IMG/VR virus record: IMGVR_UViG_3300025438_000010
Coordinates: 11,624-75,623 of that record
Source of the DNA: a virus
DNA: 64,000 bases
Reading direction: 5' to 3' (one strand)
Made by a program: the position numbers and the translations under genes
Shown: positions 28,524 through 54,473 of the stretch, piece by piece
How positions within the stretch are numbered: position 1 is the stretch's first letter
Layout: every line of letters begins with the position of its first letter
The notes under the pieces: model-generated
The model's database searches: none
Told to the model about the DNA's origin: nothing
The model's input: the letters and a program-made list of their open reading frames with translations, nothing else

Positions 28524-29575
28524 TGGCAGACCCAAAAGAGGTATACGCAGCTCTTCACAAGACTGAAGAGCTTCTTGCCGAGATGCGCAAAGAGGCCCGG
28601 GAGCTTTCTACTAAGAAAACGGGAGCAGGAACCCCGGCTCCTAAGAAAGATCGGGTCAAGGGGTCTAAGAAAAACCCCAAAGGTTCTGCATCCGGGGATA
28701 AAAAAATTACTTTTGACGCCAAAACTGAGACAGCCATTAAAAACAAGGTTGAAGAGCACAACAAGACCGCTAAAAAGGGCCGTAAGGCCACCACAAGGAT
28801 GCTCAAGGCAGTCTACCGCCGTGGAGCTGGTGCCTACAGTACCTCACACCGCCCCGGAAAGACTCGCAATCAGTGGGCAATGGCTCGAGTAAACGCTTTC
28901 CTCAAGCTTTTGCGCTCTGGAAAGCCCTCCAAGGCTGCTTACACTCAGGATAACGACCTTCTTCCCGCTGCACACCCTAAGTCTTCAAAGAAAAGCGCTT
29001 CTACCCTTACTGCATCGGGGCTGATACCCGAAGAGCAAGCCTTAGCAGATGCTTTGGCGGAGGTTGTAGCAGTCCACGGCAAGTTTGACCAAGACGGTGA
29101 CGGCGTTTGGGCGGGCTACACTCCCGCAAACGAAAACGAAGACGCCGCAATTGGCGTTAAGTGTTCAAACTGCGTTTTTTACCAAGGCGGAGACCAGTGC
29201 GGAATCATCAGTCTCAGTGTTGAACCAGAGGGCAAGTGCCGCTTTGCTGTTTTGCCCGAGGGGGCCGTCCAGGGAGACAAAGTCCCCCTTCGAGACCCCG
29301 AGTCTCTCGATCTTTTGCTTGCCTCTGCGGACGCTTCCGGCGAGTTGGCCATCTCACTAAAGGACTATTCAGAGTATAATTCTGTAGAAGAAACAGTCAT
29401 CGCTTTAACAGAGGCTTCGGGTATGGGATACGACGCAGAATTTGCCATTAAGGCGGCTTGGATGCGTGCAGTTAGAAACGGAGAAGACCCGTTTGAGCGG
29501 GCAAAGCAGCTTGCGCTAAACCCCGCTGGTAGCCTTGATGTACACCTTCTTCCTGCAGACTGGGAGGACAGGTAG
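28523..29575 (+). CDS. head-associated multidomain protein (basic WAMARV domain plus HiPIP-like Cys domain)
   Basis: LKAVYRRGAGAY...QWAMARVNAF; CSNC...C...C. Confidence 0.7.
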   Translation: MADPKEVYAALHKTEELLAEMRKEARELSTKKTGAGTPAPKKDRVKGSKKNPKGSASGDKKITFDAKTETAIKNKVEEHNKTAKKGRKATTRMLKAVYRRGAGAYSTSHRPGKTRNQWAMARVNAFLKLLRSGKPSKAAYTQDNDLLPAAHPKSSKKSASTLTASGLIPEEQALADALAEVVAVHGKFDQDGDGVWAGYTPANENEDAAIGVKCSNCVFYQGGDQCGIISLSVEPEGKCRFAVLPEGAVQGDKVPLRDPESLDLLLASADASGELAISLKDYSEYNSVEETVIALTEASGMGYDAEFAIKAAWMRAVRNGEDPFERAKQLALNPAGSLDVHLLPADWEDR

Positions 29576-32500
29576 TGTCTGATAATATTCCCGTCTCCCC
29601 CCTTAACTATCACGGTTCCTTCGAGGACGAGAATAATCAAATTATTGACGCGGCTCTGGAGTTTGCACATGATGCCAACCAGGGCTATACGGGCACCCGG
29701 GTTGCCACAGACGGAGTAGTTCTCGACGTTGCCAGGCGGACTCTCCGGGAACTAGACAACCATCCTTTCTCTGTTCGTAAACATCTTACTTTGACAGATG
29801 TTTCTCACTTTATTGTTTTGCTTCAGAAAGACAAGGCTGTTACCGCCTCGGTCCAGCACACCGATCTTCTCCCCGTTGCCCACCCTCGGTCTTCCGCAGA
29901 GCACGAGCTGAGTAACCAAGATCTGTTCGCCGCCAAAGCCCGCTGGATTGCCGACGACCCGTCTATTAAAGACGAGGAAACTCGTGCCATGGTTGCCTCG
30001 ATGCTTACGGCTCCTGAGGGCTCTGCTGAGCGCGAATATTACGCAACCAGGCTTGAGAACAGCCCCCAGGGGGCTATTCCTGTAAGAGCCTTGATTGCGG
30101 CGTTTACCGGCGGCCTAGGCGCTAACAAGGGTTACTGGATGCGCCAGCGTCGTGACCGTAAGGGTCGCTTTGCTTTCGAGGGCGGTGGCCTTAGTGTATT
30201 GGTCAAGGGCAGCACAGGTGCTGTTCGCAGGCTGACTGGTCGTACTGTTGGTCCGGGTGTTGGTGAAAAAAATGACTATTTTGATATGGAAGTTTCTCCC
30301 GGAAGCCTTGTCCGTGTTCCAGCATCTGCAACCGAGTCTTCTAAAGCGTACTTGCCTAGCCCAAACGCCCCGGACGGATACAGCCCTCAAAAGGCTCGGG
30401 TCCAAGCTGGCGACCCCGTCATCGACGAAAAAGACTTAATTCGTCCTGATGCTCCCAGTGGCTTTAATAAAGTTGCCGACGGAGCTGATGTCGACTCTCC
30501 CGAGGAAAAAGAGTACTATGGCGAAGACGCCGACTTTGGTACAGTGTACGAAGACGAAAATTATACTGTCCGGCAGTTTGACTCAGGGTCTTCCCCCGTT
30601 GCCCGAGACAATTTTAACTTGGCTCAGGAAGCCGAGCAGTCTTGTGGGCTCACCGCAGCCGGTGAGGGCGATAACTGTCCGATTAAAACTAGTGGCGCTG
30701 GTGAAAACGGAAGCTTTGACCCAGAGAAGCCGGTTTTGTTTGTCAGCCGTACAGACGACGCGAGCAATCCTGACATCTTTGCGGCCTCCCAGAGCTGGGC
30801 GGACACCCTAGACTACATTCGTCAGGATGAGCCTCGGTACGAAGCCGAAGATAGACCAGCCCCTTACATCAAACTTGGTGACCCGAGTAGGCGGGATAAC
30901 CTTGACCCCACTAGGCGCGAAGAGGGCCCACGCGGCCCCGATAATAGAAGAGTCGATCCACACGGCTTTATTATTCCGGATAAACCCGGCCTTATTGATG
31001 GCGGGGGAAGAGTAAGACCTGACGGAACAAGAGAGTTGCTCGAGGGGCGTCGGCCGGACAGCTATCCGATGCGCATCCCCCTCCCGGGCCCCTGGAACCC
31101 CCGCATTCCCGGCACTGGGCGAAGGCCCCGCCCCGGAGGAGGCCGCGCTCCTGGCGGAGGCGGACGCTCTCCCGGAACAGGACGCCGCTGGGGCTCCAAC
31201 GGCCCTAACGAGGGCCACGCTCCCTACCCAATCCCTGGGCGTCGTGTCTACCCCGGCGAAATTGCGGACATGCGCGTTGGATCAGAGATGGAGCAATATC
31301 TCGGAGGATTCCTTTCGACTCTCTTTGGAACAGCAAAAAAGCGACAGCTACGAAAAACTGGTGCTGACGAGTGGGTTGACCTGGAGACCGGAGAGACTTA
31401 CACTAACGATCAAGTCTCAGAGATGGCCGCAACTAGTGGTAAAGATAGTTCTCCTTTTACGGGACTTGCGACAGGACCCGAGGTACGCCCCGGAACATTT
31501 ACTAAAATGATGTCAGGCTCGCTTTTTAGCGAGCTTCCCACCGGCAGTGAGCTTAATGATCACCTAAGACTTTTTAACGTTATGACCCAGTTCCGCAAGG
31601 TTGGGTATAACCAGTGGCGTCGGTGGGACGGCAAAATCTTTACAGATGCTGAGGTGCAAAAAAAGAGCGGCACTATGCAGATTGACCGAGTTGGAGAATT
31701 TGGTCCTGGTAGACCCCCCGGTGGGGAAGTATCAGGAGAATCCTCTAAACCAAGACTCCCCAGAGGTCCACTGACCCCCGAAGAGCTGGCCGAGCTTCGC
31801 CCCGGATCCCTTATTTCTATACCTGGAGAAGACGATCAACCTCCTCGCTTCTTTGTAAAAGTAGGCGAAAACGACTGGCGCGAGATTGACCCAGAGAATT
31901 TTACGTCAGACCCTGCAGTTTCTTTCACTGATGAAGACATTCTCAACATGGGTAAGGACATTACTCTAGAGAAAGAGCCAGAGGCCTACGAACAGGGGCA
32001 ACTAGGCATGCGTCCATCAGATCTTTCTCCTGAGGCCCTGGAAAACCTCCCCGAGGGCACAGTTGTAGGGACTTCAGATGAAGAAATTGATAACCTCAAC
32101 ATTCCCCGGCAGCCCTATGCGACTGAAGAGGCGTACCAAGCAGCCCTAGAAGAAGCCAAAGAGTTTTACCGCCGCAATAGGTGGCGTAAGCGTGGTCCCA
32201 ACGAGTGGGTAAATGACTTTGGTGAGTTTGCTACAGACGCAGATATTGCAGACGGAAAGAAAACTCCTGGACTTATTATCTCTCTCGGCGATGAGGTTAG
32301 CACCCCCGAAGGCTACTACGATTTAAATCGAGAAGAGCTTTACACGCCTACAGGCGGCGCAGAAGGGCAAACCTCACCTGACTTCACCGATGACCCCGCA
32401 GAGCTGGCTCAACGTTTCTCAGAGGAAGAGCTGCAGGCAGCCCTTAAAGAAGCCCTCGAGAACCCCAACGGTTTTGGCTATCTAGAGTTTGCAGAAGGCG

Positions 32501-35500
32501 ACGAGCCGGTGCCTGCAGAAGCACTGTACTATGCCTTGGTTCGTAAGCTCGGTGTCGATGTAGCAGATAAATTTGTCAGCGTCGTTTATGGTGAAGGGCG
32601 AGCCTTTGACGCAGAGACTGAGCTTGCCCGAGAATTCCCCGACATTCTTAGTGATGACCCAGGCAAGCGCCAGGCTGCTCTTATCGAGGCTTGGAACACC
32701 CAATGGGGGCGCTCCAAGTTTGCACTAGATAGAGACGGAAACTTCACTGTTACCGGTAAAGACAATGACAGCATTGCCACTCAGTATCTGCTCGACAAAA
32801 TCAGGGCAGAAGAGTGGGGGCAAGAGTTTCTTAACGACTTCCAAGAGGAGTATGGCGAGGTTCTTAATGACCGCACTAAGGCGGCAATTAAAGATCTTTT
32901 CAAGGCTTATCCAGGACTAGAGAGCTCCGACCCCAAAGAGCGTGAAGCCGCAGTACTCAGGGCTCTAGACGATTTAATTAGTGACGACGAATATGTTGCT
33001 GATGAAGACGGAAACATCGTTGAGGTGAGCCCCAAGACTGCGCTTACTAAACTTTTGTGGGACATGGCTCAAGAGTTTATTGGTGGAACATCCGCCCCTA
33101 CTGGTAGAAAAGAAGAAGGAAATCTTCCTTCCGTGATCGAGGGGGCTTCCGAAGAGGAGAAAGCTGAGTTCGATAAAACAGGTGACCCCACTCCTTTCCT
33201 CCCTAAAGACAACCCCGAGTCCTTTGAAAACGTGTGGAACAACTACTACAACCCACTTCCCGAGCCTTATGACCCCAAAGACGGTCCTGACCAGATCAAT
33301 CCGGTAAATCTTGCTCGTAAATTCACCCCTGATCAGCTGAAAGAGCAGCTTCGCGAGGCCATTCTTGATGGGAGTGGTTACGGTGTCGTTGCTTTCGAGG
33401 GCCCCTCCGGCGAGCCCATTGAGTTCCGAGTCCCAGCCGAAGCGCTGAGGGATGCACTGCAGCTTCAGGGCGAGGATGCAAACGCCTTTATTCAAGATAT
33501 TTTTAACGAAAACCTTTCACCAGCCAAGCAGGTTCAAAAACTTATTGACGAAATTGCTGACCTTAAAGCTAGGCGTGATGCGGAGACAAACTCCACGGAG
33601 AAGGGCAAACTTACTCGACAGATTAACAAGAAGACCGCTGAGATCGGGATGCGCTATAAGGCTATTGTGGCTCTTAAAAAGCGCGAGGCCCAGCTAGACC
33701 GTCTATCCAAGCAGAGCAGCTTGTCTGACGAAGAGCGCCAGCAGGTTCTGGACAAACTTGAGCAGGTTCGAGCACGTCGGGAGCAAGAAGAAGGCATCTT
33801 CAATGGAGACCTAGAGCAGGGCGAAAGCATGACCCCGTTCGAGGAAAATGTAGATGCTGAGCTTGAGAAGTTTGACTTTGAGCAGGCCTCTACTCGTACG
33901 CCAGTCGAGCCCCCTGCAGCTGAATCTCCTGAAACGGTAGAAAAGGATAAGCCTAAGCCCGTTGTCTCCTACAAGAGGGTAGGCAACAAAGTATTCATCA
34001 GACAGCGGACTGGTCGCGTTATCACCAACAACCCTGAGTTTAAAGAGTTTATTAAGGAAAACGGTTTTGTCTACGACTCTAAAGTAGACAAGGTGTTTGA
34101 AATTTCTGAAATGGATGACACTGAATTTAACGAATTTATGCGTACCGTTCGTGACCGGTTCGGTATTAGTCTTGAGCCCGAGAAGGGTCAAGAAGCCATT
34201 GACTTTGATGCCTCGCCTTCACCTACTCCTCGCCCCGTGCCCAGCCCAGCTGAGTTTGGAAAGTCCCCCAATAGTGCGTCTATTATCGAGTCTCTTCAGC
34301 GCCGAATTGCGGATATTCAAGAATTTGTTAGAAAAAAAGTTGTCCCACTTCTGCGCTCCGATAAAAGTGACGAGAGCCGGCAGGGACAGCAGCTTAATCG
34401 CAGAGCAGAGAACATTACTCGTAAGCTTAAGAATCGGATTAGTCGTCATCAAGATGAGGCACCAGTCGGCAAGGATGCTCGTGACCCCCGTGTCCTCAAC
34501 ATCCGCCCTACGGACTACCAAGTAGGGGATGTCTTTGTAGACGATTTGTTCACTGTTGATCGAATTGAAGTATCAGAGCCCATCACAGACCGGCAAAGTC
34601 CCTACTTTGGTGAGCGCGAAATTGTCTACTTCGGGCACTACCCGGGTGGCGTGGAGCAAATGAAAAAGCGCCCGGAGAACTTCAGAACCGATGGAGTTTA
34701 CCGAGGCTTAGGGTCACCTGCTGGGGGGGACCTGCCCGCCCTGAATTCTCCCAAGGGTGAGGAGTATCTCCCCGAGGCAGCTCGTAATCAGCCTAGAGGA
34801 AATCTGGAGCAGATTGAGCGAGAGCCTCTTGACGGCCGCGAGAGACGGAATCTTTATGGTCCTAAGCAAAGAGACTTCCCCGAAGAACACGACAAATTCC
34901 TTAGAGACTATGAAAAGTACGAAGCTGACCTAGCGGAAAGAAGGGCTAGCTGGTCTCCCCCGGCTCCTTCTGGTGAAACACGACCCACCACTACATCAGA
35001 AGGCCAAGGAGCTCCAACTCCTGGTCCTCGCCCCAAGATTGTAACCGGGTCTGACGAAGCTCAAAACTTGAAGCCCGGGGATATTACATACAGGGAAAAC
35101 CCAGACGGCTCTCTTGAGTTTTTTGTTGTCCAAACTGTTGAAAACCGTAAGGTAAAGACCGGGACTAAGACTGTTACGCAGGAGGCCCCCGAAGCCCCTC
35201 AGGTCGTAGACACTGAGACGGCCCAATCGGCTCTTGACGAGGCCGTCAGGCGCTACCCCGAGCTGGGGGAGGATGATCCGGCTAGACGGAAACGTGCGTA
35301 CGCCAAACTTATCGGAGAGTTTTACGCAGAGGCCCAGCAGGCTGGAGAAGCCCGTAAAGAAGGTAAAGACTATGTTCCACTGGAGGGCCCTTTAGGAGAG
35401 CGCTTTGGTTGGCTGCTTAGTCAGCGAGAACGAGTTGTCGCAGGTGAGCCCCTTAGTGTAGAAGAAGTGGTTCCAGGCGAGCCTCGAGAAATTGAAGAAG

Positions 35501-38500
35501 ATGTTTTCGAAGAAAAAACATTTGTAACTGGTTACCACCCAGGGCACGAAATTCAAGAAAAGTCTTGGAGCCCCCAGACTACTATTAATTACGTCAGAGG
35601 TGAGACTGGTCTTCCCCCGGCTGGGGATAAGCCAGCTGTTCCCGGAAAAACAGATATCTACGCTTCTACTTCCAACAAAGCGGAGCGTGCGAGGCTCCTA
35701 GCAGAGAGAGAATCCACCCTTTCTGAGTCATCAAAGCTCTACGCTCTTGACTCTGCTGCTAAAGTCAACGCTGTCCCGAGTAAAGTTAAAAACCCCAATA
35801 GTTTTGTGATGATTGGAAAGTTTGTTCCGGCTTTCTTTGGGAAAAAGATTTTGGACCTTGTCCGTGGTAAGACTGGCAAGGAAATTAAAGAAGAGCTGAA
35901 GAGCAAGAGGGTTGTGTTCCTTGACTTTGAAAGTGTTGGTAAGGGATTTGATAGACGAAACCCAGATGCCCCAATTCAGGTCGCGGCGGTTGTCTACGAA
36001 AACGGTCAAGAAACTGGTCGTAAGGTTCTCTTTATCAACCCCGGTGAGCGCCTTGGCGGGTATTACTACGAGGCCTACCCTAAGAAAGACCAAGATGCTG
36101 CTCCTGGTGATGTCACCCCCGGAAAACTGCCAGACGGCTCACGTGTAGGACAAATTGTTGGCGATGAGCTTATTACCTACACAAGGCAGGGAGCGCGTTG
36201 GGTTAATGATGCCAACTCCGAGGATGTTTTAAACACAACCCAGCTAAAAACCCGCTCTTCTGAAACTCTAAAGCTAAACGAAGAAGGACAGCCCACTCTA
36301 AGAGGTAATCGTCTTCGTGATTCTGACGGTAATCCCATCACTGATGAGTTTTTGTCCTCGCAAAAGGGACTCGAGGAGTCCTTCCGCGAGCTGATTGACT
36401 TTATCGGGGAAGATGCATACCTCTCCGCTTTTAACGCCGATTTCGACATTAATTTATTGGATAGTTTTGCGGAGCGTTTAGGGCTTGACTTCCGCAGTGA
36501 CGGGTTTATCGACCCTCTAGCCCTGGCCCGGGCCCTCAATCCAGATGACTCTGTCCCCAACAACCTTCCCTCGGTCGCAACCAGATACGGGATTATTAGG
36601 GACCCAGATGACTGGCACAACGCTGAGATTGACGTTGAGGTTCTTCCAGATCTTCTGGACAAAATGCTTGATGAAGTAACCCCCGACAACTCTGTTCTTG
36701 ACGCAGACAAAAGAGCAGCCGAGTATGAGAACGGGATTCGCAGATATTTTGAACAGCTAGACCAGTGGGAGGCCCAAGAGGGGATTACACCTAGGTCGCC
36801 CGCGCCGGTAGAAGCCCAAGAGGAGCCTACACCTACACCTACACCTACACCTGCTCCTGCTCCTGCGCCTCAGGGCGAAGACACCTCTTCAGATCAAGAA
36901 ATTGATGCTATGGGGATCGGGGCCAACCCTCGCTCTATATTTGGTGACACAATAAATGAAGAGTGGATTGCAGACGAAGAAAACACTATCGTTGTGGCCA
37001 ATAGTGCTAGCAATGTCAGAGACCTGCGGATTGGTGACTTTTTCGGAGATCAAAACGGAGAGTACAACGAGCTTCTTGTAGTAGAGACAGATCCCATCAC
37101 CGGCAGGGAGACATTTACTTACCGAAATGTCAACACAGGAGAGATTTTTAGGGCTTTTGGGGCTCCAGGGTCTCAGGCGCGGGTGGGTACAGATCAAATG
37201 CCTTTGCGCAGGCGATCCGAACTAGACGGGCTGAGTAACGCTGAAATTCTAGGTCTTTTAAATAATCGCGCACGTAGAGACTCTCTAAATATGGCCGTCC
37301 CTGAGGTTCAATTTGAAGACGGGGCAAGTAGGGCTGTTTCTAAAGCTATTGACGACTTTATTAACGAAGGTCGTGGAGACGCCTCCGTCTCGGACGGCTT
37401 GCCTGCTCGCGAGACAAGTGCCATGCACACCGATAAAAACGGATTTGCTCTTGCCGTAGACGACCTTGTCTATAACCCTAAGACAGGTACTACACATAAA
37501 GTAACCCAAACTTACCCAACGTACTCTAAAAATGAATACGTTAACTACGTTCGAATAAGTTTTATTAATTCCAAAGGCCAGGCCGACTCTAAGCCTATGG
37601 CGTCCGACAAACTTGAACTGATCAATCCCCCTGCTCAGGAAGAGGCCCTTTCGCCTCTGTCAGATGTTTTTGGCGAGCAGGTCGTTATCGGAGGTAAGAA
37701 AGAAAAGCCTAGAGATCCAATTTTAATTGCTCGCACAATAGAGCGACTTATGGGCTACCTGAACCCCGGGCCAGGATATATTCGTCCGATTGGCAATGCC
37801 ATTAAGGCGGCTATTAAAGCCTATAGAAATAATGATTTTGCATCTGCTGAACGCTTTGCGGGGGCGGCAGTAGACTACGCTGACTCCATAGAAGCCCCAA
37901 AAATCACTGTTGAAGACATCAAAAACCAGGTTGCTGACAGAGCAAGAGGTCTTGCTGGCCTGATTCAGCTGCCTGAGACAGGTCCTGCACCCAGGGAGGC
38001 CTTTGCTGAAGCCGTTGGTCTGTACAACACCGGGAAGTATGCCCAGGCTCGCAGGAAGCTTGACACGGTGGAAGATCTACTCTGGAACGAGGCAGAAGAA
38101 GCTCGTCAATCTGCAGGTCGCTCACCGCAAACTGCTGTTAAAAAGTTTATTGATGGAGTTGGAGAACTAGAATCTGCGATTGATGCTCCCCTAACCAGAG
38201 AATATTTTGCTCGGCTACTCCGAGATGCTCAACGCAAAGACTATGATTTTGAAAATAAAGAGGGGATTATTCAAGAGGCACTTCAAGCCATTAGAGACGG
38301 ATTTATTATCCCCGGATATCAAGTTCTTGAAAGACTTGCTCGCACCAGAGAACGCCAGCTTGATCAAAAAAATCCAAAGCGGAGAAAGCTTGGAGAAGAA
38401 AGCTATACTCAGCGGCTCACAGCTGAGATTAACTCTGACGTTGCTGAGAAGCCGGGGTCCTCTGCAGATGAATTAGCGGAGACAGGGACACCCGAAGAGG

Positions 38501-41500
38501 CTGCTCAGGAGCAATTAGACCAAGTTGTCAACACGGAAGGTCGTCGTGGTCTTTTTTACACAGACGCTGCGAGTATTCAAGAAAAAGATATTGTCTTTAC
38601 AGAAAGCGGTGTTGGGACTGTCATAAAGAGGCGGGACCTTGAAGACGGGTCCATTGAATTGACTGTTACGTCTTCGCGTGCTGTCCTTGATGCAGATGGT
38701 AACGAAGTAGATCTTCTTACCTCCTACAATAAACTGTCCTCCCAGCCCGATGATGAAATACTTCTTCTTCAACGACCCGCCAAGGACAATGCCCCTCTCC
38801 CCCAGAAAGCTCGCAGTATTGGGTCCTCTGAGATTTCTGACTCTGATTATAACGAATTTGAAGGATTCACTGGGCCAGAAATTGTTGATGAAGAGGATAA
38901 CGAAATTGAGCCTCCCCCCGTCCTTAACATGGCAGTCCCGGGAACTTCTCCAGCAGAGGACGTAAATGCTACCCCAGAGCAGGCAGCCATTATGGATGCT
39001 ATCGCAGAGGGAGTTAAACGCGTTAAGGTTCTAGCATTTGCTGGAAGCGGTAAGACCACCAGTCTTAAGATGGCTGCTAAGTCAATTCTTAAAAAGAACC
39101 CTAAAGCCAAGATTCTTATGGTTATGTTTAATGTCTCTTTGAAGGAAGAGACCTCTGCAAAAATGCCAAAAGGCGTCGAGGTTCGTACCTCTGGATCACT
39201 TGCTTTCCAGGCCTTAGACCCCCAGCTTAAAAACAAACTGAGTAACCAGGCAAATACAGCCAAGTTCCCCGACATGGCCGTTTCCCTCCGGCAGGAAACT
39301 AAAAAGCTCGGCATCCAGGGTCCTCGTAAGCTTACGGTTGATGGCTCAGAAGAAGAATTCAGTGCCACTAGAGTAGCTCGGGAAGTTAAGAGAGCTGCTA
39401 TTAAATTTTCATACAGCTCAGATGATAGAGTTACTGCTGAGCACTTTGGTGATAAATTTGATGAGGTTCCAGCCGAGCTGATTAATTTAGCGCAGAATTA
39501 CTTTGACATGGCTGTATCGCCAAATGGTGATATTAAGCTAGAGAATCACCACATTGTAAAGCTTTGGTCAATGTCCAACCCCGATCTGACAAAGTTTGGC
39601 TCTGGTGTCTGGAACACCGGAGCTCAGTATCTCTTTTTTGATGAGGCGCAAGACATCAACCCAGCCGTGGAAAAAGTTATCACCAACCAGAAAAACTTTG
39701 AGTCTATGGTCTGGGTCGGGGATAGCCGACAGGCTATTTATCAATTTATGGGTGCTGTAGATGCAATCAAGAGGTTCTCTGCCGACCGTGTGCTGGCACT
39801 CACACAGTCGTTCCGCTTCGGGGAAAAAATTGCTGGGATTGCGAATCGTGTGCTCAGTCTTATCGGTGAGCCAAGACGCATTAAAGGCTCCGGCCCGAGC
39901 GGTGAGATTATCGATGGCATGTCTGATCCGACCATTGTTATCAGTCGAACTAACCCTGGTGGCTTGGCCAAGTTGGCTCAGTTTATTGAAGAAGGAAAAG
40001 CTGTCGCCATAGACGAAGACGCACTCATGGAGTACACATCTCTGCTCGACGGTATTGCTTTCCTCAGAGCACGCACTAACAATCCGGGACTAGAGCGCCC
40101 CGCCACACTGCACCCGCAACTTGTTGCATATGACGACTATAGCCAACTCCTTGAGGAGAAAAAAGAGGGAATGCTTGGCGGAGGTGCTTCTGCAATGCTC
40201 AACATTTTGCAGAAGTTCCAAGAGTCTCCTAACGACATCGGAGCTGTGCGTGATCTCATAAATCAGTTCTCCGTGGTTCGAGACATCCCCACTGCAAAGC
40301 GTAGTGAAGACTATAAAGCTCTTGATTACGACGACATTGAGCCCGGAAGTATTGTCCAGGTCAACGCGGAGTCCGAGCAGGCTCGCAGGGGGAACTCCGC
40401 AGCTTACGCCTGGGTGGGAGACGACGGCACAGTTTTTGCCCGAGCTTTTGGATTCAACCGAGGTCAAGGAGCTGCTCAAGAGCGCAAAGCTATGCATGCT
40501 TACTTTAAGTCTCTAGGGTTTAAATGGGACCCAGAGGCAAGCATCCCCGACTCCTTGCGCCAGATAAAAAACTCTAACGGTAAGTCTATGCAGACTCCGC
40601 CCGAGGGGCAGGGTGGAGCATATGTTATGCCCGCCGGGTCTCCCACAAATCTGGACGAAAACGGTCGCTGGATGCTCGCCAATCAAATTAAAAAATACGC
40701 TAATAACTACTTCCAAACTCCAGAAACTCCCATCTCGTTTACCACTGCCCACAGGGCAAAAGGCCGTGAGTGGGATCAAGTTCTAATTGCCGGGGACTTC
40801 CCAAAGCCAGATATGGACGAAGAAAGCCTTGAATGGAAGCTTCCCGATGAGGAGGAGCTAAACCTTATTTACGTAGCAGTCACTCGAGCAATTAAAGGCT
40901 TAGATCTTGGCTCCCTGAGTTGGGTGCTGGAGGAGACCACGGACGACGACGCCGCGTATCGTCAGCCAAGTGCTGAAGAGAGCGTCTTGAACATGGCTAT
41001 TCCTACTAAAAAAGTCAGCAAAGTTGAATTTGTTGAAATGGTAGATGAAGCCGATCAAGCCTTGGCTGCCCAAACCCAGCGGGTTCTGGATGAGATTAAA
41101 ACAGCAATTGCGGACGGGGAAACCCCCCCGTGGGTCGCCCCATGGCAGGCAACAACCAGAAATCAAAATACTACTCCGGGTCGTCTTCCTATAAGTGTTA
41201 CTACCGGTAACGCCTACTCGGGAAGCAATCTTCTTTATCTGCAGGCAGTAGCTAAGAACAACGGTTGGTCAGATAACCGCTGGGCCACCCAGGGCGAAAT
41301 AGATAAGCGCGGGGGCAAAGTAAAAGCAGGTGAGCTCCCCACTAGGATGACTGCTTGGTTGCCCAACTACACCACAATTTTAGATGACGAAGGCAACGAA
41401 CTTGAGACCATTTATTCGGTAAGCCCTCAAGATCACTTTGTATATAACGTTGAGCAAGTAGACGGTCTAAGCAACCTTGGAAATACCCCTAGTGCCGCAT

Positions 41501-43158
41501 CTCTTACCCCTTCAGAAGCAGAAAATGCTATGTTGGCTTCCTACGTAGACGCACCCTCTATTGTTAACCAAGAATCCAGCCCCGAAGACGTCGAAAGCGG
41601 CCGGGCTGCCGCTAACTACCAGCTAACCACGGACACCATCTCTCTGCCTCTCAGGGAAAACTTTCCTTCTAATGAGAAATATTTTGAAGCACTCGCCCAT
41701 GAACTTATTCACTCAACAGGCGCGACTCAGCGACTCAATAGGGAAAGTGTTGCCTTCCCCGGAGGGGTGAGTGCCTACTCCGCTGAGCAGTATGACGAAA
41801 TGAGAGTCGAGGAAGAGTTTATTGCTCAGATTGGTACAGCTATTCTGGCCTCCCGGTTAGGGGTTAGCCTAGATATTCCAAACTTGGCTTCTTACATGAA
41901 AGCCTGGCAAGATGTGTACAGTGACGACCCAGACCGCCTTGTGCGAGCAGCCAGAAAAGCTCAGGATGCTGCTGATTACATTCTTCGAGGCGGTGGCGGA
42001 GGCTCCGCGTCAGCCCCTGAGGCCGCCCCGCTAGATGATTTTCTTGTCTCCTCTACTGGCTGGCAGCTAGCCGTTCCCACAGAGCGTTTTAACATGGCTA
42101 TCCCGTCGGAAGACACAACTCCGGAAAAACTAAAGAGTGAAGTTTCCGAAACTAAGACTAAAGCTCAAGAAATTTCTGAAAAAGTGACCAACATGGTTGT
42201 ACAGGCCATTGAAGATGGAAAGGAGCTTCCATGGAACAAGCCGTGGACAAGCGACAACATTTTCTCGATGCCCTACAGCGTGACCTCAAATAAGCCCTAC
42301 CGAGGATCTAACATTGTTTCCTTGTGGGTAGCGGCGGCAGTAAACGACTGGGAAGATAATCGCTGGATTACTTTCAACGAAGCCAAAAAGCGTGGTGGGT
42401 CCGTCAAAAAGGGCTCCAAAGGCACTCAAATTGTTAACTGGAGCCCAGTCAAGAAGAACGTAGAACAGCCAGACGGAAGCATGAAAGAGGAAGTAGCCTT
42501 TATGCGGCCCTCAGTCTACACTGTGTTCAACGTGGAGCAGACAGAGGGTGTGCAAGACCTCCCCGAGCCCGAGTTGATGGAGCCAGTGCCGATTCTAGAG
42601 GCAGAAACTGCTGTCCTCGATCGGTACAAAGATGCGCCTCCTATTAGCAATAAGCTTCAAGATGCCGCCTTCTGGCGTCCCTCAACAGACGAAATTGTTA
42701 TGCCGCTTCGGGAACAATTTAGTGATGTAGGAGAGTACATCGCTACCCTATTTCACGAACTTACCCACAGTACCGGGCACAAGAATCGGCTAGACCGTAG
42801 TGACCTTGGCGATAAGTATTCAACACACCTTGATGCTCGAGGAGAGGAGGAGCTTGTTGCCGAAATAGGCTCTGCTATTCTTGCCGCCCGCATGGGAATA
42901 GAGCTAGACCTCACTCGAACAGCTGGTTACGCACAGTCCTGGTTGCGCCCTTTGAAGAATGATCCCGACATGATAACCAAGGCAGCTCAGAAGGCGCAGG
43001 CTGCAGTAGACTACATTCTCGGAGACTCCCCCTACCGGGGAGAATCCGGTCGGACTGGTGAGGAGCGTGCAGCGGACCTAGAGGCCCCTGAAGCAAATGC
43101 CGAGCCCACTGCCCCAAACCTAGGAGAGCAGGGAGTACCTGGAGATAGCAATGATTGA
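29575..43158 (+). CDS. 4527-aa polyvalent protein: repeats, DEDDh exonuclease, SF1 (UvrD-like) helicase, two ArdC (ssDNA-binding plus zincin) modules
   Basis: FLDFES/FNADFD/HNAEID; AFAGSGKT/DEAQD/GDSRQAIY/SFRFG/HRAKGRE/YVAVTRA; PWVAPW...HELIH and PWNKPW...HELTH. Confidence 0.9.
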   Translation: MSDNIPVSPLNYHGSFEDENNQIIDAALEFAHDANQGYTGTRVATDGVVLDVARRTLRELDNHPFSVRKHLTLTDVSHFIVLLQKDKAVTASVQHTDLLPVAHPRSSAEHELSNQDLFAAKARWIADDPSIKDEETRAMVASMLTAPEGSAEREYYATRLENSPQGAIPVRALIAAFTGGLGANKGYWMRQRRDRKGRFAFEGGGLSVLVKGSTGAVRRLTGRTVGPGVGEKNDYFDMEVSPGSLVRVPASATESSKAYLPSPNAPDGYSPQKARVQAGDPVIDEKDLIRPDAPSGFNKVADGADVDSPEEKEYYGEDADFGTVYEDENYTVRQFDSGSSPVARDNFNLAQEAEQSCGLTAAGEGDNCPIKTSGAGENGSFDPEKPVLFVSRTDDASNPDIFAASQSWADTLDYIRQDEPRYEAEDRPAPYIKLGDPSRRDNLDPTRREEGPRGPDNRRVDPHGFIIPDKPGLIDGGGRVRPDGTRELLEGRRPDSYPMRIPLPGPWNPRIPGTGRRPRPGGGRAPGGGGRSPGTGRRWGSNGPNEGHAPYPIPGRRVYPGEIADMRVGSEMEQYLGGFLSTLFGTAKKRQLRKTGADEWVDLETGETYTNDQVSEMAATSGKDSSPFTGLATGPEVRPGTFTKMMSGSLFSELPTGSELNDHLRLFNVMTQFRKVGYNQWRRWDGKIFTDAEVQKKSGTMQIDRVGEFGPGRPPGGEVSGESSKPRLPRGPLTPEELAELRPGSLISIPGEDDQPPRFFVKVGENDWREIDPENFTSDPAVSFTDEDILNMGKDITLEKEPEAYEQGQLGMRPSDLSPEALENLPEGTVVGTSDEEIDNLNIPRQPYATEEAYQAALEEAKEFYRRNRWRKRGPNEWVNDFGEFATDADIADGKKTPGLIISLGDEVSTPEGYYDLNREELYTPTGGAEGQTSPDFTDDPAELAQRFSEEELQAALKEALENPNGFGYLEFAEGDEPVPAEALYYALVRKLGVDVADKFVSVVYGEGRAFDAETELAREFPDILSDDPGKRQAALIEAWNTQWGRSKFALDRDGNFTVTGKDNDSIATQYLLDKIRAEEWGQEFLNDFQEEYGEVLNDRTKAAIKDLFKAYPGLESSDPKEREAAVLRALDDLISDDEYVADEDGNIVEVSPKTALTKLLWDMAQEFIGGTSAPTGRKEEGNLPSVIEGASEEEKAEFDKTGDPTPFLPKDNPESFENVWNNYYNPLPEPYDPKDGPDQINPVNLARKFTPDQLKEQLREAILDGSGYGVVAFEGPSGEPIEFRVPAEALRDALQLQGEDANAFIQDIFNENLSPAKQVQKLIDEIADLKARRDAETNSTEKGKLTRQINKKTAEIGMRYKAIVALKKREAQLDRLSKQSSLSDEERQQVLDKLEQVRARREQEEGIFNGDLEQGESMTPFEENVDAELEKFDFEQASTRTPVEPPAAESPETVEKDKPKPVVSYKRVGNKVFIRQRTGRVITNNPEFKEFIKENGFVYDSKVDKVFEISEMDDTEFNEFMRTVRDRFGISLEPEKGQEAIDFDASPSPTPRPVPSPAEFGKSPNSASIIESLQRRIADIQEFVRKKVVPLLRSDKSDESRQGQQLNRRAENITRKLKNRISRHQDEAPVGKDARDPRVLNIRPTDYQVGDVFVDDLFTVDRIEVSEPITDRQSPYFGEREIVYFGHYPGGVEQMKKRPENFRTDGVYRGLGSPAGGDLPALNSPKGEEYLPEAARNQPRGNLEQIEREPLDGRERRNLYGPKQRDFPEEHDKFLRDYEKYEADLAERRASWSPPAPSGETRPTTTSEGQGAPTPGPRPKIVTGSDEAQNLKPGDITYRENPDGSLEFFVVQTVENRKVKTGTKTVTQEAPEAPQVVDTETAQSALDEAVRRYPELGEDDPARRKRAYAKLIGEFYAEAQQAGEARKEGKDYVPLEGPLGERFGWLLSQRERVVAGEPLSVEEVVPGEPREIEEDVFEEKTFVTGYHPGHEIQEKSWSPQTTINYVRGETGLPPAGDKPAVPGKTDIYASTSNKAERARLLAERESTLSESSKLYALDSAAKVNAVPSKVKNPNSFVMIGKFVPAFFGKKILDLVRGKTGKEIKEELKSKRVVFLDFESVGKGFDRRNPDAPIQVAAVVYENGQETGRKVLFINPGERLGGYYYEAYPKKDQDAAPGDVTPGKLPDGSRVGQIVGDELITYTRQGARWVNDANSEDVLNTTQLKTRSSETLKLNEEGQPTLRGNRLRDSDGNPITDEFLSSQKGLEESFRELIDFIGEDAYLSAFNADFDINLLDSFAERLGLDFRSDGFIDPLALARALNPDDSVPNNLPSVATRYGIIRDPDDWHNAEIDVEVLPDLLDKMLDEVTPDNSVLDADKRAAEYENGIRRYFEQLDQWEAQEGITPRSPAPVEAQEEPTPTPTPTPAPAPAPQGEDTSSDQEIDAMGIGANPRSIFGDTINEEWIADEENTIVVANSASNVRDLRIGDFFGDQNGEYNELLVVETDPITGRETFTYRNVNTGEIFRAFGAPGSQARVGTDQMPLRRRSELDGLSNAEILGLLNNRARRDSLNMAVPEVQFEDGASRAVSKAIDDFINEGRGDASVSDGLPARETSAMHTDKNGFALAVDDLVYNPKTGTTHKVTQTYPTYSKNEYVNYVRISFINSKGQADSKPMASDKLELINPPAQEEALSPLSDVFGEQVVIGGKKEKPRDPILIARTIERLMGYLNPGPGYIRPIGNAIKAAIKAYRNNDFASAERFAGAAVDYADSIEAPKITVEDIKNQVADRARGLAGLIQLPETGPAPREAFAEAVGLYNTGKYAQARRKLDTVEDLLWNEAEEARQSAGRSPQTAVKKFIDGVGELESAIDAPLTREYFARLLRDAQRKDYDFENKEGIIQEALQAIRDGFIIPGYQVLERLARTRERQLDQKNPKRRKLGEESYTQRLTAEINSDVAEKPGSSADELAETGTPEEAAQEQLDQVVNTEGRRGLFYTDAASIQEKDIVFTESGVGTVIKRRDLEDGSIELTVTSSRAVLDADGNEVDLLTSYNKLSSQPDDEILLLQRPAKDNAPLPQKARSIGSSEISDSDYNEFEGFTGPEIVDEEDNEIEPPPVLNMAVPGTSPAEDVNATPEQAAIMDAIAEGVKRVKVLAFAGSGKTTSLKMAAKSILKKNPKAKILMVMFNVSLKEETSAKMPKGVEVRTSGSLAFQALDPQLKNKLSNQANTAKFPDMAVSLRQETKKLGIQGPRKLTVDGSEEEFSATRVAREVKRAAIKFSYSSDDRVTAEHFGDKFDEVPAELINLAQNYFDMAVSPNGDIKLENHHIVKLWSMSNPDLTKFGSGVWNTGAQYLFFDEAQDINPAVEKVITNQKNFESMVWVGDSRQAIYQFMGAVDAIKRFSADRVLALTQSFRFGEKIAGIANRVLSLIGEPRRIKGSGPSGEIIDGMSDPTIVISRTNPGGLAKLAQFIEEGKAVAIDEDALMEYTSLLDGIAFLRARTNNPGLERPATLHPQLVAYDDYSQLLEEKKEGMLGGGASAMLNILQKFQESPNDIGAVRDLINQFSVVRDIPTAKRSEDYKALDYDDIEPGSIVQVNAESEQARRGNSAAYAWVGDDGTVFARAFGFNRGQGAAQERKAMHAYFKSLGFKWDPEASIPDSLRQIKNSNGKSMQTPPEGQGGAYVMPAGSPTNLDENGRWMLANQIKKYANNYFQTPETPISFTTAHRAKGREWDQVLIAGDFPKPDMDEESLEWKLPDEEELNLIYVAVTRAIKGLDLGSLSWVLEETTDDDAAYRQPSAEESVLNMAIPTKKVSKVEFVEMVDEADQALAAQTQRVLDEIKTAIADGETPPWVAPWQATTRNQNTTPGRLPISVTTGNAYSGSNLLYLQAVAKNNGWSDNRWATQGEIDKRGGKVKAGELPTRMTAWLPNYTTILDDEGNELETIYSVSPQDHFVYNVEQVDGLSNLGNTPSAASLTPSEAENAMLASYVDAPSIVNQESSPEDVESGRAAANYQLTTDTISLPLRENFPSNEKYFEALAHELIHSTGATQRLNRESVAFPGGVSAYSAEQYDEMRVEEEFIAQIGTAILASRLGVSLDIPNLASYMKAWQDVYSDDPDRLVRAARKAQDAADYILRGGGGGSASAPEAAPLDDFLVSSTGWQLAVPTERFNMAIPSEDTTPEKLKSEVSETKTKAQEISEKVTNMVVQAIEDGKELPWNKPWTSDNIFSMPYSVTSNKPYRGSNIVSLWVAAAVNDWEDNRWITFNEAKKRGGSVKKGSKGTQIVNWSPVKKNVEQPDGSMKEEVAFMRPSVYTVFNVEQTEGVQDLPEPELMEPVPILEAETAVLDRYKDAPPISNKLQDAAFWRPSTDEIVMPLREQFSDVGEYIATLFHELTHSTGHKNRLDRSDLGDKYSTHLDARGEEELVAEIGSAILAARMGIELDLTRTAGYAQSWLRPLKNDPDMITKAAQKAQAAVDYILGDSPYRGESGRTGEERAADLEAPEANAEPTAPNLGEQGVPGDSND

Positions 43159-43455: not shown

Positions 43456-43732
43456 TTCTCCTGAAGAAAAATTAACAGATCATATGTACATTATTTATGA
43501 CGCTCCCACGGGTCAAGTCACCCAGGTTAAGTACGAAACAGCTGCGCACGGGCTGTGGACCAGAATTCAAGGGGAGTGGCGGGAATTAGCTTTAGAAGAT
43601 GAGAGCGAAGATTTTATGGAGCGCAGAGAAATTGCTGGAAAAAACTACCTAGAAACTCGTGACTATTTTGACGACCAAACCGAGCAAAAGATACTTACCT
43701 ACGAGCCAGAGTACAGGATGTGGTTTGCTTAA
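43448..43732 (+). CDS. 94-aa acidic hypothetical protein
   Basis: AAGGAG RBS, coupled on both sides. Confidence 0.6.
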   Translation: MSDSPEEKLTDHMYIIYDAPTGQVTQVKYETAAHGLWTRIQGEWRELALEDESEDFMERREIAGKNYLETRDYFDDQTEQKILTYEPEYRMWFA

Positions 43733-46700
43733 TGATTGAGCTCTTAGGGCATAGAGGCAATAGAGTCTTATTCGACGATGACGGATATGGCGTCATTATC
43801 GACGCCCAAGAAAACACTGTAGTCGAGTACGGAGAGACCGACTCTTTGGTTGCCTCGGCAGACTGGAGCTCCTCTACGGAGTCAGGGAATTATGCACTTG
43901 CAGAAGAGCTGGCTTCTGCCGCGCTTACTGATTTAGATATAAATGTACTCTCAGCCAATGACCGTATGTACACCATCCCCGCCGGTGTGAAAGAAGAGGC
44001 AAAAAGAGGACTTAAGTGGCGCAAAGAGGAAAGCCGTGGAGGCACTAGCGTTGGCCTGAATACCGCCCGGACTTTGGCAAAAGGTGGCCAAATTGGGATT
44101 AAAAAAGTTAGGCACATTGCTAAATATTTTCCACGGCATGAGGTTGATAAAAAAGGTAAAGGCTACAAGCCCAAAGAAGACGGGTACCCCAGCAATGGTC
44201 GTATTGCATGGGCACTTTGGGGAGGCGACTCCGGTAAGAGCTGGGCCTCAAGGATTGTAGAAAGCGAAGACAAAAAAAATAAAAAAGGTGTCTCCGCCGG
44301 GGGGTATGACCAGAGCCCTAGGGTAGATTTCTCTGCTTTTACAGAAAAAACAGATTTTTATGTACGAATTAGATTAGATGGAACCGGCATTGACAGGCTT
44401 TATCGCGTTCTGACAGACGGCATGTGCCAAGTTTGGGACGACGGCTGCTGGGACGATATGGGCGATATTTCGTTTGACTTTATCACCTATGACAAAGCCC
44501 TGGACGACCCCTACGACTCCTGTAAAAAAATTCATGTTCCCGTAGACCTTAAAACAGCTGTAGCCGTTTCTGCTTTGTTTGACAGTGACCCCTACAGAGC
44601 TGTGAAAATAGTAGAAATTGAGCCAGAGGAAACAACCCTATTTGAAAAATCCATGGCTGAGCTTGACTGGGATGTTTTTGACCAGCTAAGTGATGACCAG
44701 CTTGAGGTAGACGACTACTGGGACGACGGTCTTACAGCTTCAGGAACAGCTACTTTTGCAGAAGAAGCTGACAGTACCCCGGGTGTCTACACCGAAGAGG
44801 AGCGCTCCGAGAACGCCTCGACTCAGGTTAGAGACCGTCTTGGTCGCTTTGCCGAGGTGGGCCAGCGAGTTGTTATTGGTGGGAACTACAACTACCAGGG
44901 AAACATTACAGCACTAGACGGAGCCACAAAGCAGATTAGTGTCGAACTAGACAACGGCACGTCTGTTGATGTGCCGGGGGACTCTGTGCAGGATGTCTCC
45001 ACTTTTGAACCAATCCCAGTGTCTAGTCCTACTGCCACTCCTTTGGATTACACAGGAATCCTCGGAGAGCCCAGAGTTCCCATCGACCAGCCCAATGCCA
45101 TGCTGCCTGGACGCCTCCCCCCTCTCACCGCAACTGACACAAATCTTCTGGTAAACGACTGGGATTCCTGGGTTGCGGGGCAGCGGCTAGCCCCTGAATA
45201 CTCAGGCGACCCCCTCCCTCCTTTTGTTCCCAAAGAGGTTCCTGATATTAATACGGCTATGGGGCGCTACTACGAGGGAGCATTTAATCCTGACGGATCC
45301 ACCAAACCTGGTTGGAACCCCGCAGTGGCGCAGAACGTATTTAACGAACCGCTTCTACGCGACTGGCTAGATGAGCGGTACGCCAACAATTCTGGGGAAA
45401 TCGGGTACCACAACCGTGGTTGGTATACGCCTCCTGTAACGCCAAGGTCCACGCCTGTTGAGCAAAAAAAGACTCGTAGTGAGGTATACGACCCCACCAA
45501 CGTGGCCTACTGGAATGATAGATTTAATCCAGTTAACTTCTCTATTACCGCTGCTGCTGACGATAAGCCCCTAACTCCCGAAACAAGTGATGTTCCGGTC
45601 ATGTACCTGGCTATTGTAGCTGACGACGACCCCCAGGCGGTTATGGAGCTTGTAGCGTTGGTGCCTGCGTCAAAAACAAGCAACGCTCCTTTCGCGTACA
45701 AGCGTGAGCCCGGCAAGTGGGTTGCTGATAACCAGATTATCTCTGATCTTAGAAGTGCAACACCACCCCCCGTAATTGTCCTTGACAACGAAATGCTTTC
45801 AGAAGTCACTGAGCAGATTGATAGTATACAAGCCTCTGTGAAGCTTCCCTACTTTATTGCCCACACAGACAACAAGATTATTCGGGCATTAGTAGCCGCC
45901 GGTGGAGCTGACCGCAACCGTGGCAACGCTGAAAAGCTTCGCAGGTACTGGACTGTTGGCAAAGGCGGATTGAAAATTCGCTGGAACACTCCTGGTGATT
46001 GGACTCGGTGTAACCGCCAACTTAAGAAGTACATGGGTCCCCGTGCAAAAGGCTACTGCGCTCTCCGCCACAAAGAGATGACAGGTGTCTGGCCTGGAGA
46101 TAAGAAAAATATTGGTAAGAAAACCAAGAAAGCACTGAAAGCATCTGCTGAACTAGAAACACTTAAATCTGAAGACCAGATTATTTCTGAATTTACTTTA
46201 AGAGCTAAGGCCGAGTCCGCCAGGTCACGAGTTGCTGGGAGGCACGGAGTTTCTCCAACTCTGCACGGCCTTGAGTTTGTAATCCCCCTCGTCATCCCTG
46301 AAAACGTAGAAACGGGGGATGGACGTATATTTAAAAAAGGATCGATCACCCTAAGAAGTCTTCCTCTGCCTCTTCTATGGCAGATTAAAACAGGGGACGG
46401 CCATGACGGGTCCGTTGTGGTTGGTCAAATTATTTATATGGAAAGAACTAATGAAGGCATAGGAAATGCCTATGGAGTTTTTGATACAGGACCCTTCGCT
46501 AAAGAAGCAGAGCGTTTAGTTCGTCATGGGTTTATTCGTGGGGTTTCTGCGGACATGGATAAATTTGAAACTGTAGACGAAATTCTCCCTGAAGACGAAG
46601 CCGGAGAGAAGTCAGATGATGACAACGCCGGTAAAATAAATATAAAGAGCGCCCGTGTGATGGCTGTAACTATTGTCCCTAAACCAGCTTTCCAAGAGTG

Positions 46701-53969: not shown

Positions 53970-54473
53970 ATGCCAGTCAACGTCACTGATGTATCAGATG
54001 ATGCAAAAAATATTGACACTTTTATGAACGAAGTTCTTACTCGTCTAGAAGCCGTCTATGAAAGTTTTAGTATGCCTCTACCGACAAGACGGTACTACAC
54101 CTTTGGATCCCCTGTAGTTGACTGTGAGCAAGCAGTTGTTTCTCTAGCTCAGATTTATCTAGGAGCGCCAGGAGACGAGGTCTCGGAGCCCCGTCGTTGC
54201 AATGACCCGAGGACAGCTACTTTAAATATCTCTATTTCCAGGGAAGTACCCATTGCTCAGCCAAACGGGAATCCTCCAACCCCGGAAGCAATGACGGCGG
54301 CCAACAGGGTTGCTGCATATGACTCTTGGGTTCTTATGGAGAGTATTAATGAGCTTGATGCCTGGGCCAGCCCCGGGGGTTTTGGCCTGGGGGTAATTGC
54401 AACTTTAGACTACGAACCACCTCAGGGCGGTTTTCATACTACAGTTTTGACTCTTACAATGGCTGTCCCATAA
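53970..54473 (+). CDS. tail completion/terminator protein
   Basis: Position; VVDCEQ and PQGG motifs. Confidence 0.55.
   Translation: MPVNVTDVSDDAKNIDTFMNEVLTRLEAVYESFSMPLPTRRYYTFGSPVVDCEQAVVSLAQIYLGAPGDEVSEPRRCNDPRTATLNISISREVPIAQPNGNPPTPEAMTAANRVAAYDSWVLMESINELDAWASPGGFGLGVIATLDYEPPQGGFHTTVLTLTMAVP

Follow-up and report, generated by a model that had tools for sequence, protein, structure and literature searches.

A hexapeptide, [LF]NMA[VI]P, recurs at four module joints of a 4527-aa giant protein of an actinobacterial phage and, as judged by comparison with homologous giants, is a real junction element that is selected for and held under purifying selection at the homologous joints. It is quite possible, if somewhat short of an even chance, that this lineage-specific junction tag is a proteolytic processing tag, cut most likely by one or both of the giant's own zincin (MPTase) domains. 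The source phage is uncultured, with an IMG/VR record estimated to be 57% complete, and a 4527-aa protein identical to the giant is found in a public protein collection. The giant is probably packed in the virion head.

Architecture of the giant protein

In the window (the whole 64-kb stretch of DNA that was analysed), the giant and its parts are laid out as follows:

29575..43158, + strand, giant polyvalent protein gene, 4527 aa, single ORF
29575..37284, + strand, tag-free N-terminal part, 2570 residues, with header, repeats, low-complexity stretches and exonuclease
37285..37302, + strand, junction tag 1, LNMAVP (aa 2571-2576), before module B
37303..38922, + strand, module B (aa 2577-3116), AlphaFold2 (AF2) model, no Pfam match
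38923..38940, + strand, junction tag 2, LNMAVP (aa 3117-3122), before the helicase
38941..40986, + strand, UvrD/SF1 helicase module (aa 3123-3804), Pfam UvrD-helicase, AAA_19 and UvrD_C
40987..41004, + strand, junction tag 3, LNMAIP (aa 3805-3810), before ArdC module 1
41005..42060, + strand, ArdC module 1 (ArdC-N ssDNA-binding and zincin MPTase), by Pfam, HELIH at 41698-41712
42061..42078, + strand, weaker fifth copy, WQLAVP (aa 4163-4168), 9 residues before tag 4
42088..42105, + strand, junction tag 4, FNMAIP (aa 4172-4177), before ArdC module 2
42106..43155, + strand, ArdC module 2 (ArdC-N and MPTase), by Pfam, HELTH at 42754-42768

Pfam matches on the giant ORF include RNase_T, a UvrD helicase, two ArdcN and two MPTase-PolyVal domains; several unrelated effector domains, MPTase and ArdC-N among them, thus reside in one ORF, as is characteristic of polyvalent proteins. 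The likeness extends to the many-domain, virion-module proteins with ArdC-N, MPTase, helicase and nuclease domains that are described in the available portion of Iyer, Burroughs, Anand, de Souza and Aravind 2017 (PMC5512222). By contrast, that portion of the account defines no cleavage site, while the giant carries a conserved hexapeptide at its module joints as a candidate substrate.

The N-terminal 2570 residues comprise a conserved header, internal repeats and Pro/Gly/Arg low-complexity stretches, with a DnaQ-like exonuclease at about aa 2090-2400 (nt 35842-36774). The giant of Actinomycetia phage DSL-LC01 has this header and repeat as well. Module B is modelled (pLDDT 67) as a small beta domain, a helical region, a second beta domain and a disordered tail, and neither a Pfam search (no match) nor a fold search (no significant match) relates it to other proteins. 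In Arthrobacter phage Racecar, the helicase portion of gp78 is ~28-29% identical to the helicase module. PF08401 and PF18818 both score over their cut-offs on two stretches each, in the order ArdC-N then gluzincin HExxH, and a conserved tail element (G-E-S-G-R-T-G-E-E-R-A, aa 4489-4499) follows ArdC module 2.

ArdC module 2 matches the ArdC of R388 (6I89) with an E-value of 5.5e-48, chain residues 4-284 corresponding to aa 4194-4481 of the giant. The alignment, which includes HEATH and the EEL.AE helix, keeps the HExxH and the downstream Glu helix, by which the module resembles R388 ArdC (6I89/6SNA; Gonzalez-Montes et al. 2020, PMC7213743). The R388 enzyme is a standalone protein of 297 aa for which no substrate is known and whose anti-restriction does not require the protease (PMC7213743); the giant, by contrast, has two ArdC copies, each joined to the rest of its 4527 aa through a tagged linker.

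The junction tag and its linkers

The preliminary description had reported LNMAVP (twice), LNMAIP and FNMAIP at the module boundaries of the giant, within otherwise unrelated flanks. A DNA pattern search with translation confirms the four copies, comparison of the copies finds their flanks unrelated to one another, and the placement relative to the modules is right, with the Pfam UvrD helicase starting at aa 3142 and ArdC-N/MPTase domains following tags 3 and 4. The peptide pattern occurs four times in the 64-kb window, always inside the giant ORF and in no other reading frame. The corresponding DNA pattern (AAYATGGCNRTNCC) likewise has 4 matches (37288, 38926, 40990 and 42091), each on the + strand and in frame with the giant ORF, against a mean of 0.01 in dinucleotide shuffles, in which four or more matches were found in 0 of 100; strict matches in the shuffled giant protein average 0.0005. 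Synonymous codon differences occur among the copies (AAT/AAC, GCC/GCA/GCT and GTC/ATT/ATC); thus, the repeat is at the peptide level. A simple duplication of the linker is rejected as the origin of the tag, as the modules after tags 1 and 2 are non-homologous.

In the AF2 models, the tags lie in linkers of pLDDT <50 between well-folded domains, with ArdC module 1 among the well-folded. Tags 1 and 3 have pLDDT <50, and tag 4 is inside a 38-residue stretch of pLDDT about 30. The tag-bearing linkers are, thus, predicted to be disordered and accessible. A short consensus that is repeated at module borders, in linkers predicted to be disordered, and conserved in relatives is the pattern expected of a proteolytically processed viral polyprotein.

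Conservation in homologous giants

About 20 homologous giants keep the tag at the same joints in the form hydrophobic-x-[M>L]-[A/S/T]-[V/I/L]-(x)-P. Seven homologues of 45-76% identity have it at the same four joints, and it is present in a further clade with a helicase of only 31-33% identity, where the linkers are otherwise unalignable. The conservation at homologue junctions on which the preliminary description had made its reading depend is, thus, borne out at the same four joints despite flanks that do not align. The variants in homologues include: (i) LNMAVP, FNMSVP, LEMAVP and LGLQLP for tag 1, (ii) LNMALP, IAMAVP, FAMAVP, LFLAVP, LGMARP and FNMALP for tag 2, with AMAVMP or AMAIMP in the distant clade, (iii) LNMAIP, IGMAVP, FDMALP, LNLAIP, LGMSVP and MAMALP for tag 3, with GMSVIP or GMTVNP in the distant clade, and (iv) IRMAVP, IAMAVP, FNLDVP, FNLAIP, FNMALP and LGMARP for tag 4. 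The weaker fifth copy also has a counterpart, P0003 having WQLALP where the giant has WQLAVP. The Asn of the tag is not conserved in homologues, which leaves hydrophobic-x-M-A-[VIL]-P as the core. Succinimide-type autoproteolysis at this Asn is unlikely, as G, A, D, E or R takes its place in homologues. The search for close relatives of the giant by a single-protein scan of viral contigs found none, a degenerate DNA pattern for the helicase retrieved only distant helicases from viral contigs, and blastn of phage records gave no match.

Among the 44 tag instances collected, Met is found in 40, Ala in 35 and Pro at +3 in 33, counts that refer to the same positions used to pick the instances. The prominence of Met, the most conserved position, and the Ala at the second codon would also suit internal translation starts that yield the modules as separate proteins in addition to the giant. 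Such starts are very improbable, in keeping with the preliminary description, which had noted no convincing SD before these Mets. The anti-SD pairing energies upstream of the four Mets (-2.9, +1.2, -5.5 and -2.7 kcal/mol) are at the background level of 63 internal ATGs (mean -2.8), compared to a mean of -6.7 for gene starts. Residues before the Met (the hydrophobic at -2) and after it (V/I and P) are conserved with synonymous changes, homologues P0004, P0005 and P0006 have Leu in place of the Met, and both R388 ArdC and other standalone ArdCs start about 20 residues downstream of the position of the tag Met. The latter offset also rejects the tags as vestigial N-termini of fused genes. Leaderless internal transcripts are rejected on inspection of the sequences, in which no -10-like hexamer is suitably spaced ahead of the Mets.

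Co-occurrence of the tag with MPTase domains

At the helicase joints, the tag is found in 13 of 21 giants that bear an MPTase compared to none of the 16 MPTase-free giants whose helicase is related; the 8 MPTase-bearing giants without the tag have a different domain order. At least one HExxH is kept in every tag-bearing giant, and the nearest cultured phages (DSL-LC01, Racecar and Pumpernickel) encode giants with neither MPTase nor tag. In a quick helicase tree, the tag-bearing rows form two clades, which leaves room for a single origin; the co-occurrence of tag and MPTase is not independent and represents one or two evolutionary events.

Other MPTase-bearing giants (P0036-P0042) carry a different short tag, G-F-[A/S]-Q, in 3-7 copies each, including sites directly before ArdC modules. 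Thus, short tags at module joints are a general feature of such proteins. The broader proposal that the hexapeptide is a self-processing site of ArdC-type MPTases, and that the different tags of the lineages (G-F-[A/S]-Q included) co-evolve with their MPTases, is rather doubtful.

Proposed processing

The tags may mark cuts that would divide the giant into an N-terminal piece of 285 kDa and four cargo modules, with predicted products of 60 kDa (module B), 76 kDa (helicase), 40 kDa (ArdC-1) and 39 kDa (ArdC-2). The cutter would be one or both of the ArdC-type zincin (MPTase) domains of the giant itself, although the AF2 model has neither tag docked onto a zincin. Cutting would need to take place after entry into the capsid or after ejection into the host, since cuts made sooner would separate the cargo from the N-terminal header. 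Cleavage, its enzyme, its timing and the scissile bond at the tag are all what we infer from this arrangement.

The preliminary description had proposed the release of separate effectors. For the four C-terminal modules, which the tags delimit, this would fit the tag pattern; the N-terminal part with its exonuclease is tag-free over 2570 residues and, thus, release of all effectors is not predicted by the tag pattern. As the N-terminal part has many domain joints, the tag is also not a general domain delimiter.

Autoprocessing of polyvalent proteins by their MPTase is predicted by Iyer et al. 2017 (PMC5512222), in which DdrB of phage P1 is given as processed, while N4 vRNAP, pSa ArdC and TraC1 are given as MPTase-bearing proteins that are transferred unprocessed. 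The study of R388 ArdC found no substrate, and its E229A mutant remains functional (PMC7213743). Spartan and IrrE, the nearest folds, depend on DNA or Mn.

PPEP-1 provides a precedent for a zincin that recognises six residues of a linker. The motif of this enzyme is repeated in the linkers of its substrates. The HExxH zinc protease cleft of PPEP-1 (6R5C; 10.1101/2024.03.15.585006, PMC12828418) reads the six residues P3-P3' of VNP|PVP, a motif with a formal likeness to the tag (hydrophobic-N-x-x-V-P). Unlike the tag system, PPEP-1 is secreted, belongs to a different protease family and cuts a Pro-Pro bond. Pfam finds no M34 (Pro-Pro endopeptidase) domain in the giant, and the Pro-Pro of PPEP substrates is replaced by Met-Ala in the tag, which places the giant outside the M34 system. 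PPEP-1, thus, serves as an analogy solely for the mechanism.

A protease function has been predicted for the MPTase of ArdC and polyvalent proteins since 2017 (PMC5512222), and the structure of R388 ArdC followed in 2020 (PMC7213743). The tag offers a concrete candidate substrate for an ArdC-type MPTase that is cheap to test. If the self-processing reading is true, this widespread type of zincin would gain in the tag its first defined substrate and specificity, and large dsDNA phages would run a true polyprotein strategy in which anti-defence and DNA-processing enzymes come from one packaged precursor. The phage would then load a helicase, two anti-restriction modules and module B as one precursor that is freed on demand, and the tag would provide a rule for predicting the mature products of many giant phage proteins in metagenomes.

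Other candidate cutters

The giant gene follows a portal gene (26694-28523) and an ORF of 350 aa with DUF5824, and is itself followed by a protease-bearing ORF, a capsid protein, an adaptor and a tape measure, i.e., a virion gene context:

43720..48522, + strand, 1600-aa ORF with a prohead (HK97/S78-type) protease region, no tag
48686..50731, + strand, major capsid protein, the canonical substrate of a prohead protease, scaffold-like domain at its N-terminus, domain boundary free of the tag

The protease region is in the middle of the 1600-aa ORF (E 5e-58 to the PHROG head maturation protease, with only a weak Pfam S78 match). The protease that the preliminary description placed at 43732 corresponds to this ORF.

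The processing of packaged proteins by head proteases at short consensus sites is well established: in T4 and in phiKZ/SPN3US-like phages, a single prohead protease trims many internal proteins, and capsid protein and cargo share its cleavage consensus. The position of the giant gene in the head module, between the portal gene and the protease-bearing ORF, would fit a similar cut of the tag by the prohead protease inside the procapsid. The likeness to those phages (e.g., PMC10052503) is a short consensus repeated in packaged or ejected proteins; unlike in those phages, a search of the capsid protein (its N-terminal region and the boundary of scaffold and fold), the 1600-aa protease ORF and the portal found no copy of the tag. 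Relatives that combine a homologous head module with MPTase-free giants also lack the tag, and a cut by the prohead protease is distinctly unlikely. Between the two cutters named in the preliminary description, the prohead protease and the protein's own zincins, the evidence leans to the zincins, because neither the capsid protein nor the protease protein has the tag, which is present only in giants that carry an MPTase.

A host protease that cuts the tag after ejection into the cytoplasm is slightly less probable again. A conserved host enzyme could explain why the tag is kept in phages whose hosts are probably different Actinobacteria, and a cut before the Met would give products that start with Met-Ala like ordinary cytoplasmic proteins. 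To our knowledge, however, no actinobacterial protease has the specificity of the tag, and this explanation accounts neither for the restriction of the tag to MPTase-carrying giants nor for the different tag of other MPTase giants.

A docking role and the neck-region protein o167

The tag may instead be a docking motif, by which a partner of the portal, the neck, the capsid interior or the host would position or order the modules for packaging or ejection. This explanation is unlikely, though less so than a cut by a head or host protease. The predicted disorder and accessibility of the linkers suit docking as well as cutting, and a neck-region protein, o167 (53970-54473), ends together with 120 homologues in [LI]-T-[M>S,L,V,A]-A-[VI]-P-COOH, which matches the tag pattern; by a rough post hoc estimate, the probability of this likeness by chance is 0.001-0.01. 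By contrast, no partner is known, the o167 tail is equally conserved where giants have no tag (e.g., DSL-LC01), and its alternation of T and hydrophobic residues resembles a last beta strand rather than a free peptide. The o167 tail of P0172 also shows no co-variation with the Leu variants of P0006, if both are from the same contig, as the equal length of their contigs suggests. An Atlas look-up of o167 returned no named family. The o167 family, which is unrelated to the giant and ends in the tag peptide, hints at a binding role.

Tag repeats in the giant protein

The 4527-aa polyvalent protein of ORF 29575-43158 (+ strand), here termed the giant, combines a DnaQ-like exonuclease and UvrD helicase with two ArdC modules, each composed of ArdC-N and a zincin (MPTase) domain with an HExxH motif; module 2 aligns to R388 ArdC (6I89) with an E of 5.5e-48. 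Only two of the giant's 4527 residues are cysteines, at aa 357 and 368; its homologues have 0-4. The preliminary description reported a hexapeptide, [LF]NMA[VI]P (the tag), repeated at module boundaries of this protein in linkers with otherwise unrelated flanks. In the window, AAYATGGCNRTNCC matches four times, always on the + strand and in frame of the giant ORF:

Tag 1, nt 37285, + strand: LNMAVP, before the 540-residue module B
Tag 2, nt 38923, + strand: LNMAVP, before the UvrD helicase
Tag 3, nt 40987, + strand: LNMAIP, before ArdC module 1
Tag 4, nt 42088, + strand: FNMAIP, before ArdC module 2

Both observations hold: dinucleotide-preserving shuffles of the window DNA give an expectation of 0.01 matches, protein shuffles of the giant a mean of 0.0005 strict matches, and the flanks of the four copies are unrelated. 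As synonymous codons also vary among the copies, what recurs is the peptide. Tag 4 is preceded, 9 residues upstream, by a weaker copy (WQLAVP); residues 1-2570 have zero tags, and a scan of the giant for further recurring short peptides yielded no non-trivial one besides the tag.

Conservation of the tag

The tag is a selected junction element. Conservation at domain junctions in homologues, proposed earlier as a check, is found at the same four aligned joints in seven homologous giants of 45-76% identity (with variants that include LEMAVP, IAMAVP, IGMAVP, LGMARP, IRMAVP, FNLAIP and FNMSVP) and extends to a second clade, in which the helicase is just 31-33% identical to that of the giant and the linkers are otherwise unalignable. 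In this distant clade, the tag takes the form A-M-A-[VI]-M-P at the joint leading into the helicase, and [LI]-G-M-[STK]-V-x-P at the helicase-ArdC joint; ten more representatives with the helicase-ArdC order have the same pattern. Of 44 instances, 40 have Met and 4 have Leu at the anchor, +1 is Ala in 35, +2 is V/L/I in 39 and +3 is Pro in 33, all four positions having belonged to the selection rule. Position -1, outside this rule, is N, G or A in most instances, while -2 is hydrophobic in 40/44 (permitted, not required, by the search pattern). The homologue variants at -1 indicate that an Asn there, as in the four tags of the window, is not essential; the core is hydrophobic-x-M-A-[VIL]-P.

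Linkers and internal starts

None of the tags is docked onto a domain in the AlphaFold2 models. For aa 3785-4527 (mean pLDDT 79), both ArdC modules are well folded and pLDDT is <50 at tags 3 and 4; it is also <50 at both ends of the module B model, where tags 1 and 2 sit. Module B (aa 2577-3116; 37303-38922, + strand, 540 aa) is modelled as a helical region between two small beta domains, with no Pfam family and no significant match in a fold search.

Translation starting internally at the tag Mets is unlikely, as had been argued from the want of a convincing SD. Anti-SD pairing, computed on the 18 nt upstream of each Met (-2.9, +1.2, -5.5 and -2.7 kcal/mol), is at the background level set by the giant gene's 63 in-frame ATGs (mean -2.8; 22 gene starts average -6.7). 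Furthermore, conserved residues flank the Met on both sides, Leu replaces it in some homologues, and standalone ArdCs, R388 ArdC included, begin ~20 residues past it. The best reading, and a moderately probable one, is that the tag is a proteolytic processing signal, whichever the protease. Cuts at the tags would release predicted products of 285, 60, 76, 40 and 39 kDa; we infer the cleavage, as well as its enzyme, timing and scissile bond.

Candidate proteases

The source IMG/VR virus record is 75.6 kb (estimated completeness 57%), and its head genes are ordered as follows:

26694-28523: portal, first in the order, followed by a DUF5824 ORF
29575-43158, + strand: giant
43720-48522, + strand: 1600-aa ORF with a central prohead-protease region (~730 residues before and ~325 after; three annotated genes in the equivalent region of DSL-LC01)
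48686-50731, + strand: capsid protein (N-terminal scaffold-like coiled coil, acidic linker of >150 residues, then HK97-type fold), with adaptor, neck proteins and tape measure downstream

Capsid protein identities of 71% to Actinomycetia phage DSL-LC01 and ~50% to Microbacterium and Arthrobacter phages make an actinobacterium the probable host.

Of the two cutters named earlier, the prohead protease and the giant's own zincins, the evidence leans to the latter, because the tag is missing from three of the head proteins and confined to MPTase-bearing giants. The portal, protease-bearing ORF and capsid protein contain no copy, and the scaffold/fold boundary of the capsid protein, conserved also in DSL-LC01, Pumpernickel and Racecar, is unrelated to the tag in sequence. 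In a set of 37 giants whose helicases are related, the tag occurs at helicase joints in 13/21 with an MPTase and 0/16 MPTase-free, a correlation that amounts to one or two events, not 13, since the tag-bearing rows of the helicase tree fall in two clades, possibly one. The DSL-LC01, Racecar and Pumpernickel giants have neither MPTase nor tag, HExxH is kept in all tag-bearing giants, and eight MPTase giants of different domain order are tag-free. That the giant's own MPTase cuts the tag is a tentative and somewhat doubtful proposal.

In the sections of Iyer et al. 2017 drawn on here (PMC5512222), MPTases are predicted to process polyvalent proteins, the cleavage site is not named, and P1 DdrB is processed while N4 vRNAP, pSa ArdC and TraC1 are unprocessed. 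R388 ArdC, with Spartan and IrrE as nearest folds, has no substrate found, and its E229A mutant still supports conjugation (PMC7213743). PPEP-1 is a zincin that reads a six-residue linker motif, VNP|PVP (10.1101/2024.03.15.585006), and compares to the giant's MPTase and tag by analogy only.

A tag-like tail and other junction peptides

That the tag is a docking motif is kept alive by o167, a 167-aa neck-region protein (53970-54473, + strand) with the C-terminus LTLTMAVP. This terminal peptide has the same pattern as the tag, a match unlikely by chance; across 120 homologues, the corresponding ending is [ML]-T-[LI]-T-[M>S,L,V,A]-A-[VI]-P (terminal Pro in 114/120). However, the tail resembles a terminal beta strand and, if P0172 and P0006 (collected homologues) share one contig, as the equal length of their contigs suggests, does not co-vary with the Leu variants of the giant. 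Such tails are also present in phages whose giants are tag-free.

The MPTase-bearing giants P0036-P0042 have no M-A-V-P-type tag and carry G-F-[A/S]-Q 3-7 times per protein, with a copy immediately preceding every ArdC module. MPTase-bearing giants seem commonly to have, at their module joints, short peptides that are specific to a lineage. In the distant giants of IMG/VR contigs L084, L085 and L091, a second small HExxH domain (H-E-I-A-H), which the window's giant does not have, ends the protein after ArdC. The last ArdC module of the window's giant is followed by G-E-S-G-R-T-G-E-E-R-A (aa 4489-4499; window ~43039-43071, + strand), an element conserved in both clades (G-E-[SQ]-G-x-[TS]-G-E-E-[IR]-A) that reads G-[SE]-[EQ]-G-[QK]-[ST]-G-E-[EQ]-I-A, in 1-2 copies, in the distant one (L084, L091, P0010, P0032 and P0035).
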